Origin: Escherichia coli
GTDB lineage: Bacteria > Pseudomonadota > Gammaproteobacteria > Enterobacterales > Enterobacteriaceae
Strand: one strand, 5' to 3'
DNA: 64,000 bases
Assembly: GCF_044324875.1 (NCBI RefSeq)
Contig: NZ_CP172185.1
Both the position numbers and the translations under genes were made by a program. The notes beneath the pieces were generated by a model that made no database searches, was not told the origin of the DNA, and saw only the letters and a program-made list of their open reading frames with translations. Positions 20,946 to 21,632 of the stretch are shown in pieces. Position 1 is the first letter of the stretch. Each line of letters starts with the position of its first letter.

Positions 20946-21632
20946 TTAATGCAACGGTTCACCCTTTGTCGCCACGGCTAATGGGCGAATTTTGTCACGG
21001 GTATCCCAGACCGGAGGGATTTCATCCAATTTAGTGACAGAAGCTCGTACAAAAGGCACCCGTGCAATAGTCATAATCGTATTCAACCAACGGTCACGAA
21101 TAATGCGATCTGCCCTTTCATGACTCGGATCATCCAGCTCAATAACACAGACTATTTTGTTGTTCTTCTTTGAAACCAGAACATAATCCATTGCCATTCC
21201 ATTATAAATTGCAAAGAAACGCTTTCTTTCTTCTTCGCTAAACTCGGGTTGTTCTGGAAAGTTGATCAAGCGCCCCAGAGAGACCTGGCAATGGATATGA
21301 CAATAATGTCCAAACCATTTCTCCAGATTATCAAAATAGATTTTTTCACAACGCGTAATTAACCACTCTTTTCCTTCCAATAAAATACCTTCGGCAACCA
21401 TTCCCTGAAATAACTCATCTCGTTCTTGCCAACGAGAGTCACGATAGGTTTTCTGCGGTGTATAGCTCCTTGTCGACGCCTTAGCAGCAGGGGAAGTTGC
21501 AGAGGAAGGGACTGGTTGCGATTTAGTGATGATTACCGATGAGGCAACTTTTCGGAGTGTCAATTTTCTGGCAACAGCAAAACCGGCGACAAATGCAATT
21601 GTCAAACAAGTTACAAAAACCATAAAGCTCAT
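20946..21632 (-). CDS. Hypothetical membrane-anchored protein, possible endonuclease-like fold (DUF2726/Vsr-like guess)
   Basis: 228-aa ORF; N-terminal hydrophobic helix FMVFVTCLTIAFVAGFAVA, Ser/Pro/Thr-rich linker, C-terminal block IVCVIELDDPSHERADRIIRDRWL. Confidence 0.45.
   Translation of the reverse strand: MSFMVFVTCLTIAFVAGFAVARKLTLRKVASSVIITKSQPVPSSATSPAAKASTRSYTPQKTYRDSRWQERDELFQGMVAEGILLEGKEWLITRCEKIYFDNLEKWFGHYCHIHCQVSLGRLINFPEQPEFSEEERKRFFAIYNGMAMDYVLVSKKNNKIVCVIELDDPSHERADRIIRDRWLNTIMTIARVPFVRASVTKLDEIPPVWDTRDKIRPLAVATKGEPLH

Follow-up and report, generated by a model that had tools for sequence, protein, structure and literature searches.

A DUF2726 gene of the phoH-serX interval in Escherichia coli encodes a predicted membrane-anchored protein with a Vsr-like nuclease fold

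The DUF2726 gene and its chromosomal locus

In a 64,000-nucleotide stretch of an Escherichia coli genome (contig NZ_CP172185.1, assembly GCF_044324875.1), referred to here as the window, the interval between phoH and an island integrated at serX contains an open reading frame (ORF) for a protein of 228 amino acids (aa) that belongs to Pfam family DUF2726. A sequence-only reading of the window had described this ORF as a membrane-anchored protein with a possible nuclease-like domain, and its extent and length matched the ORF list exactly; the list places it on the minus strand with an ATG start (Table 1). The observation was confirmed and its interpretation is supported. The ORF is a real gene and not a chance reading frame, because it is annotated in RefSeq, occurs in one copy per genome in 1049 E. 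coli genomes, shows a ratio of nonsynonymous to synonymous substitution rates (dN/dS) of about 0.25 between its two allele groups, and has an orthologue at the same locus in Salmonella whose protein is 72% identical. These ratios come from five alleles, and within one of the two groups the dN/dS was 0.07. RefSeq has already given the product a name, "DUF2726 domain-containing protein" (WP_001305896.1), in the annotation of a genome that is 99.9% identical. Taken alone, the gene is ordinary: it is already catalogued, and the family to which it belongs is a recognised one whose function is unknown.

The GC content of the DUF2726 gene is 39-44% and that of its upstream region is 33-34%, as compared with 50-55% in phoH. 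The AT-rich upstream region holds the best sigma-70-like promoter candidate for the gene. An inverted repeat, CTCGC-TACA-GCGAG, is located at 21680-21697 on the minus strand, about 35 nt 5' of the Shine-Dalgarno sequence, in surroundings of 33% GC. The intrinsic terminator of phoH coincides with the end of the homology to K-12 (22176). Regulation of the DUF2726 gene by the Pho system was considered and rejected, as no Pho box lies upstream of the gene and a terminator follows phoH.

Table 1. Coordinates in the window of the DUF2726 gene, of the predicted parts of its product and of the adjoining features
Feature	Position	Strand	Basis or remark
DUF2726 coding sequence, 228 aa, ATG start	20946..21632	-	ORF list, Pfam, RefSeq, dN/dS
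Predicted N-terminal transmembrane anchor, residues 3-21	21570..21626	-	Kyte-Doolittle 19-mer mean 2.43; AlphaFold2 helix at residues 3-30
Predicted flexible linker, basic then Ser/Pro/Thr/Ala-rich, residues 22-62	21447..21569	-	AlphaFold2, alignment
Predicted folded Vsr-like PD-(D/E)xK domain, residues 63-215	20988..21446	-	Pfam part 21018-21365 (residues 90-205)
Putative catalytic motif block IELDDPSHERADRIIRD	21093..21140	-	E165 21138-21140, H171 21120-21122, D180 21093-21095
Putative partner residues of the catalytic block	E96 21345-21347; D149 21186-21188	-	
Shine-Dalgarno AGGTGA	21642..21647	-	Direct sequence reading; nine nt 5' of the ATG of the DUF2726 gene
Best sigma-70-like promoter candidate, TTGACT-17-TATATT	21875..21903	-	Consensus scan, 10/12 matches; consensus match only
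DUF2726 cassette, 1.24 kb, absent from K-12	20939..22175	.	Gene and AT-rich upstream region
phoH intrinsic terminator, eleven-pair GC-rich stem then T run	22179..22205	-	Between phoH and the DUF2726 gene
serX-trailer (RtT-like) tandem repeats	20658..20938	+	serX 3' fragments at 20658-20671 (14 nt) and 20834-20852 (19 nt)
Tyrosine integrase, end of serX-integrated island	19289..20497	-	ORF list, RefSeq; context only, outside the unit of the gene

In K-12 the order of genes is phoH-pgaDCBA-dgcT-IS3-ymdE-ycdU-serX-ghrA. The homology between K-12 and the window breaks at 22176, which is 43 bp beyond the phoH stop codon, and returns only in the tandem repeats; the 1.24-kb cassette between these points is swapped for about 11 kb in K-12. 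In the island-free E. coli genomes CE-O153H30 and ES1, the order is csg-ycdZYX-ghrA-serX-DUF2726-phoH-efeBOU. E. albertii has the empty-site order phoH-DUF2726-ghrA. The cryptic-clade Escherichia also carries the DUF2726 gene after phoH, and ghrA was not found on that locus. In Salmonella the orthologue after phoH is followed by an insertion sequence (IS), a scar resembling the 3' end of serX and a type VI secretion system (T6SS) island. This layout agrees with the published insertion of Salmonella pathogenicity island 19 (SPI-19) at the 3' end of serX (PMC2907695).

A BLAST comparison of serX and the empty-site genomes with the window showed that empty-site homology starts exactly at 20658. 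This position is the island/chromosome junction (attR), and the DUF2726 gene begins 288 bp outside it. The ORF had been described as lying directly outside the att repeats. The position was right, whereas the view of the repeats as att duplications of the island was not: they are native serX-trailer repeats, and K-12 carries about 3.5 copies of them behind serX without any island. The repeat unit is about 176-180 bp long and is present in two copies here, with an Rfam RtT match at 20716-20852. Each copy opens with the last 14-19 nt of serX, and the locus therefore offers several pseudo-att sites. ARAGORN found no tRNA in the 64-kb window, and the intact serX must lie beyond its left end. The integrase adjoins the displaced 3' fragment of serX and reads away from it, the intact tRNA gene being elsewhere.

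Whether the gene is part of the core or of the island had been left uncertain by the sequence-only reading, which had proposed looking beside phoH in other genomes. The phoH-DUF2726 arrangement was seen there in island-free E. coli, in E. albertii and in Salmonella. The identical integrase and repeat junction was found in genomes lacking the DUF2726 gene, for example in CFT073 and O157:H7. Island cargo was rejected as an explanation, since the gene lies outside the att junction, is present without the island in two genomes and is missing in CFT073 and O157 where the junction is present. The DUF2726 gene is an old piece of chromosomal backbone beside an integration hotspot, with a putative promoter region of its own, and an origin before the split of Escherichia and Salmonella is strongly supported.

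The DUF2726 gene is not universal in the species. Among 5426 complete E. coli genomes, 1049 have the gene, with nucleotide identities of 95-100%, and 4382 have pgaC; the two numbers add up to 5431, so that the gene and pgaC are nearly complementary across this set. Replacement of the DUF2726 gene by the pga-dgcT-ycdU segment in about 81% of E. coli is strongly supported, and the phoH-DUF2726 arrangement is common to E. albertii and to Salmonella, which has no pga. The species may be polymorphic at the phoH-serX interval, with two alternative states, the pga operon or the DUF2726 gene, at a ratio of about 81:19. About one fifth of E. coli appear to be without the pga operon for poly-N-acetylglucosamine (PNAG) and to carry the DUF2726 gene in its place. 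In a study of rdar biofilms, strains were described in which pga and ycdT are missing from the stretch between phoH and csgG and serX-ghrA is kept; the DUF2726 gene is not mentioned there (PMC5635171). The gene marks the version of the interval without pga, and it is relevant to the manner and the frequency in which the PNAG operon has been gained or lost.

This distribution also raises the question of whether the gene is a decaying relic, an ancestral gene of the phoH-serX interval that is being lost, has no current function and looks conserved only by recent common ancestry. The gene is missing from 81% of the complete E. coli genomes, IS1 has inserted into it in two cases (H21, H38) and a remnant of 20% is left in another (H50). 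One allele has an 8-residue deletion inside the domain (P0004) and another is frameshifted (P0013). In Salmonella, a 151-aa form that is truncated at the N-terminus and has no transmembrane (TM) helix is widespread (P0009, P0010). The AT-rich gene and the 33% GC of its upstream region are typical of silenced genes. Against a relic stands the dN/dS of about 0.25, and of 0.07 within an allele group. No catalytic or TM feature has been lost from the window allele, from E. albertii, from the cryptic clade of Escherichia or from the full-length form in Salmonella, and the gene has been kept at one locus since the Escherichia/Salmonella split. We consider a relic unlikely.

Predicted fold, active-site residues and topology of the protein

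The only clear match of the protein in Pfam is PF10881 (DUF2726), with an E-value of 1.8e-18 and a score of 66.9 bits, the gathering cut-off being 24.7 bits. The match covers residues 90-205 of the protein and positions 3-116 of the 126 in the profile. The sequence-only reading had singled out a C-terminal block, IVCVIELDDPSHERADRIIRDRWL, as Vsr/DUF2726-type and had proposed a Pfam search. The block is present and falls inside the DUF2726 match that this search returned. At the level of the family, no difference between the window protein and PF10881 was seen, and the motif residues are retained. The AlphaFold2 (AF2) model contains a confidently folded domain at residues ~63-222, with a predicted local distance difference test score (pLDDT) of 93-99. 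The modelled domain has the alpha/beta core of the restriction-endonuclease-like fold and resembles Vsr, I-Bth0305I, DUF559 and TnsA, the closest solved folds being those of Vsr and the homing endonuclease I-Bth0305I. In the survey of PD-(D/E)XK proteins by Steczkiewicz et al. (PMC3424549), "VSR, DUF559, DUF2726" form one group, with the structures 1cw0, 3hrl and 3r3p, and DUF2726 genes are noted to occur often amid mobile elements. DUF2726 has also been described as a DNase of the restriction-endonuclease fold that is fused to Abi N-terminal domains (PMC3710099).

An exhaustive HMMER search retrieved 886 cluster representatives at E <= 1e-3 and only 13 at E <= 1e-30. The window protein is therefore part of a small enterobacterial subfamily within the large DUF2726 family. 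The subfamily has an extra conserved helix of its own, SRW-x-RDELFWGM, which precedes the Pfam core. Across 81 aligned relatives, with identities as low as 19%, E96, E165, H171, R179 and D180 were invariant, and D149, D167, D168 and R176 were conserved in at least 90%. The composite EDxHD active site is formed by E25, D51, H64, H69 and D97 in Vsr and by E170, D196, N208, H213 and D222 in I-Bth0305I, which has an extra acidic residue at the position of Vsr F62 (PMC3239194). E96, D149, E165, D167, H171 and D180 follow each other in the same order as the residues of the EDxHD set and at nearly the same spacing; H171 and D180 are nine residues apart, as are H213 and D222 of I-Bth0305I. Conservation and spacing give good grounds for regarding E96, D149, E165, H171 and D180 as the probable equivalents of the EDxHD active site. 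The retention of the full putative catalytic set, together with purifying selection on the domain, is strongly supported.

The relationship to Vsr rests on the predicted fold, the conserved residues and the published grouping; sequence alignment contributes nothing to it. The alignment of the DUF2726 profile with E. coli Vsr by hhalign had a probability of 0.2. When the PDB was searched by sequence, the single protein returned only noise (E >= 0.35) and the profile of 81 sequences had no match, so that neither E. coli Vsr nor any chain in the PDB was detectably similar in sequence. A search of NCBIfam with the protein also gave no match, and the search of PHROGs gave only phrog_14167, a family of unknown function.

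Given the fold, a DNA repair nickase of the Vsr kind or a homing endonuclease has to be weighed. The two closest solved folds are those of Vsr and I-Bth0305I, and the conserved residue set matches both. In contrast to Vsr, DUF559 and I-Bth0305I, however, the DUF2726 protein has a membrane anchor. The loop after its third strand reads DDPSHERA, with no Cys and without the Cys/His zinc motif of Vsr, and the elements by which Vsr intercalates at the mismatch are not identifiable. The vsr gene of K-12 overlaps dcm, whereas the neighbours of the DUF2726 gene are phoH and serX, and no cytosine methyltransferase is adjacent to serve as a dcm-like partner. As for homing, Pfam found neither the NUMOD nor the helix-turn-helix (HTH) DNA-binding domain in the protein, and the gene has no intron or intein context. 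A repair or homing function is highly improbable.

The sequence-only reading had also claimed one N-terminal TM helix and a Ser/Pro/Thr-rich linker, and both were borne out. Residues 3-21 are hydrophobic, and residues ~30-62 are rich in Ser, Pro, Thr and Ala. In the AF2 model the pLDDT is 52-65 in this part, and residues 31-70 are without secondary structure. The length and sequence of the linker vary among the homologues, and its columns in the alignment are gap-rich and unalignable. The motif RKLTLRK comes directly after the TM segment. The window protein has no Lys or Arg ahead of the helix and four within the 15 residues behind it. The same holds for all 20 members of the subfamily, which have no Lys or Arg before the helix and 2-8, usually 4-6, in the next 15 residues. 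A hydrophobic N-terminal 19-mer is present in 101 of 124 distant DUF2726 representatives with a length of 140 aa or more, and in 98 of these 101 there is an excess of positive charge on the C-terminal side of the helix. A hydrophobic N-terminal segment with this charge pattern is a trait of the family and not a quirk of one protein. By the positive-inside rule, the topology is predicted to be N-out/C-in, with the nuclease-like domain in the cytoplasm. The product of the DUF2726 gene, a stand-alone backbone gene between phoH and serX, is very probably a small bitopic protein of the inner membrane whose Vsr-like domain lies in the cytoplasm.

The predicted topology bears on a role suggested by the neighbouring gene, that of a phosphate-starvation nuclease acting with PhoH or of a periplasmic scavenger of extracellular DNA. 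The DUF2726 gene adjoins phoH in the same orientation in both Escherichia and Salmonella. The two genes are, however, separated by the strong terminator after phoH, and the sole Pho box near the locus (23433-23450) is upstream of phoH, with none upstream of the DUF2726 gene. A domain in the cytoplasm would not be placed to scavenge in the periplasm, and homologues elsewhere lie away from phoH. Such a role is improbable in the extreme.

Relatives on mobile elements and the candidate role in DNA entry

Several types of element carry, in fixed slots, a gene for the architecture of TM helix, tether and DUF2726 domain. In integrative and conjugative elements (ICEs) of Pectobacterium, Dickeya, Salmonella and E. 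coli, the homologue lies between traG_N and an integrase of the Integrase_1 type, and two further ICE-type contigs came from a metagenome assembly and a sequencing-run assembly. In F-like plasmids the order is traG-traS-like-traT-hypothetical-DUF2726-(vapBC)-traD-traI. Of the 114 plasmid records with a DUF2726 match, 99 are conjugative. The RefSeq and GenBank models of the tra-operon DUF2726 gene in F-like plasmids (122 aa) are apparently truncated at the N-terminus. For pSE11-2 (4950-5384 in the examined locus), extending the model upstream in frame adds MEYVVFLAVILLILILPGRTKK, a TM helix and a basic cluster. In filamentous phages (inoviruses) of Vibrio, the homologue follows the G4P export gene. 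A 1450-bp contig from a metagenome-assembled genome of 'Collinsella sp.' encodes a protein that is 100% identical to the DUF2726 product, and this record is likely mislabelled.

The slots within F-like tra operons and next to traG in ICEs are conserved, which is what one would expect of a factor for the maintenance or transfer of the element, useful only on conjugative elements and engaged, for example, in the processing of transferred DNA at the membrane; the chromosomal copy would then be domesticated or stranded. However, the chromosomal copy of E. coli and Salmonella has been retained for long with no transfer genes nearby. The slots themselves, near traS/traT and vapBC or mazEF, belong to the accessory and exclusion parts of the transfer region and lie outside the core mating machinery. 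A transfer factor of this kind is quite unlikely. The exclusion proteins TraS, TraT and Eex resemble the DUF2726 homologues of plasmids and ICEs in being small inner-membrane proteins whose genes occupy the same stretch of the transfer region. There is no relationship in sequence, exclusion proteins are not nucleases, and the likeness is one of position only.

T6SS clusters are another recurrent setting. Citrobacter, Rahnella, 'Ca. Pantoea deserta' and one metagenomic contig have homologues with 44-56% identity between tssA and tssF, and an Erwinia homologue abuts vgrG. The T6SS-embedded gene of 'Ca. Pantoea deserta' (9990-10700 of the locus) is split over two frames, the cause being a frameshift or else an error of sequencing. 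In one T6SS locus the tssA upstream of the homologue has shrunk to an ORF of 56 aa. An 800-kb contig labelled 'Chryseobacterium sp. 18061' shares with a Citrobacter assembly both an identical 219-aa DUF2726 protein (P0018) and the T6SS gene order around it; this record is likely mislabelled too. Pfam found no family for the small ORFs that adjoin the homologues in ICEs and T6SS clusters.

The DUF2726 protein might on this basis be a T6SS accessory factor that works with the membrane complex, or the copy beside phoH might be the remnant of a T6SS cluster. The embedded copies have diverged about as fast as their T6SS neighbours: between Rahnella and Citrobacter the identity is 66% for the homologue, 59% for TssA and 71% for TssJ. 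In addition, the T6SS island of Salmonella is 1.5 kb from the gene. However, in a related T6SS cluster of E. coli tssA and tssF are adjacent, the span is about 665 bp shorter and there is no annotated DUF2726 feature. Because this cluster lacks it, the gene is optional cargo in T6SS clusters and no core part of them. The proximity in Salmonella is explained by the integration hotspot, since the 3' scar of serX separates the gene from the T6SS island and SPI-19 has been reported as inserted at serX (PMC2907695). The E. coli carriers have no T6SS genes at the locus, and most of the contexts in which homologues are found are conjugative elements. It is very unlikely that the protein serves a T6SS or descends from a T6SS cluster.

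An arrangement comparable to the one predicted here is known from SNIPE, which consists of a single N-out TM helix, a DUF4041 domain and a cytoplasmic GIY-YIG nuclease (bioRxiv 10.1101/2025.11.03.685801). SNIPE cleaves phage DNA at injection; its anchor prevents the nuclease from reaching the chromosome, and the protein is toxic once the TM helix is removed (bioRxiv 10.1101/2025.11.03.685801). The likeness lies in the single N-terminal TM helix, the N-out/C-in orientation and the C-terminal cytoplasmic nuclease, each of which is predicted for the DUF2726 protein from hydropathy, the positive-inside rule and the AF2 model. The two proteins are not homologous: Pfam finds neither DUF4041 nor GIY-YIG in the DUF2726 protein, and SNIPE is about twice as long. 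SNIPE is best regarded as an analogue of the DUF2726 protein and not as a relative.

By analogy to SNIPE, a mechanism of action can be outlined. The protein would place a two-residue N-terminus in the periplasm, cross the membrane with one TM helix and continue through a basic, flexible tether of 40 residues into a cytoplasmic Vsr-like (EDxHD-type) PD-(D/E)xK domain. The tether would hold a metal-dependent endonuclease at the cytoplasmic face of the inner membrane and away from the nucleoid. Anchored there, the nuclease could cut nucleic acid that crosses the membrane, whether conjugative, phage or other incoming DNA. Its role would be in exclusion or defence, and self would be distinguished from non-self by location, as in SNIPE. 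In favour of this proposal are the conserved putative active-site residues, the predicted topology, the purifying selection on the gene and its backbone status, the association of homologues on mobile elements with machinery that translocates DNA and protein, and the fusion of DUF2726 to Abi N-terminal domains (PMC3710099).

Several points weigh against such a function. No partner gene was found for the DUF2726 protein, and none of its features points to a mode by which incoming DNA would be recognized. The search of PADLOC-DB v2.0.0 gave no defence family at E <= 1, and in the DUF2726 literature we found no functional test of any family member. The gene is clearly dispensable, as is evident from the IS1 insertions, the in-domain deletion, the frameshifts and the truncated form in Salmonella. 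We regard cleavage of DNA at entry as possible and on balance doubtful. The predicted structure, the locus and the entry-nuclease role, taken together as a whole, make up the best explanation that we can offer, a tentative one that falls somewhat short of being probable.

A wider proposal is that membrane-tethered DUF2726 proteins constitute a widespread, uncharacterised class of gatekeeper nucleases of the inner membrane, with a minimal architecture of about 200 aa. Its carriers would be F-like plasmids, ICEs, filamentous phages and some T6SS islands, and chromosomal orphans such as the gene studied here would belong to it. Like SNIPE, but with another nuclease fold, such proteins would degrade nucleic acid on its way through the membrane and recognise non-self by location. 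At this breadth the proposal is fairly unlikely to hold. The recurrence of the minimal architecture of TM helix, tether and nuclease, together with the precedent of SNIPE, makes the family a cheap and testable candidate for the principle of cleavage at entry.

Neighbouring and other features of the window

The phoH ORF (22219-23283, minus strand) encodes 354 aa from its first ATG, which equals the K-12 annotation; the RefSeq product in the other genomes examined has 262 aa. Rfam matched Ysr251 (Yersinia sRNA 251; sRNA, small RNA) with a score of 191 bits at 22224-22417 on the plus strand, in antisense orientation to the 3' end of phoH; conservation of the phoH coding sequence may be all that this match reflects.

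The island at serX occupies positions 1-20657 and runs past the left end of the window. In strain 135, where it exceeds 49 kb, it holds metabolic genes, a group II intron and the debris of IS elements. In the window, its segment 1-7841 carries genes for sugar utilisation (an alpha-galactosidase, a GH32 hydrolase, a major facilitator superfamily transporter and a LacI-type regulator), with an IS3 to the right. Beside the integrase, the products of the module at ~10900-16500 are a DUF3987 protein, a 607-aa hypothetical protein, a small HTH regulator and proteins of the inovirus Gp2 type; a near-identical RefSeq genome annotates in it a pseudogenised fragment of a 'TOTE conflict system' primase. 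As a set, these genes have the look of a P4-like satellite or of a module of a conflict system. Rfam also matched a cspA thermoregulator at 56466-56888 on the minus strand (158 bits) and naRNA4 at 45705-45783 on the plus strand (79 bits), both of which are ordinary features of E. coli and unrelated to the DUF2726 gene.

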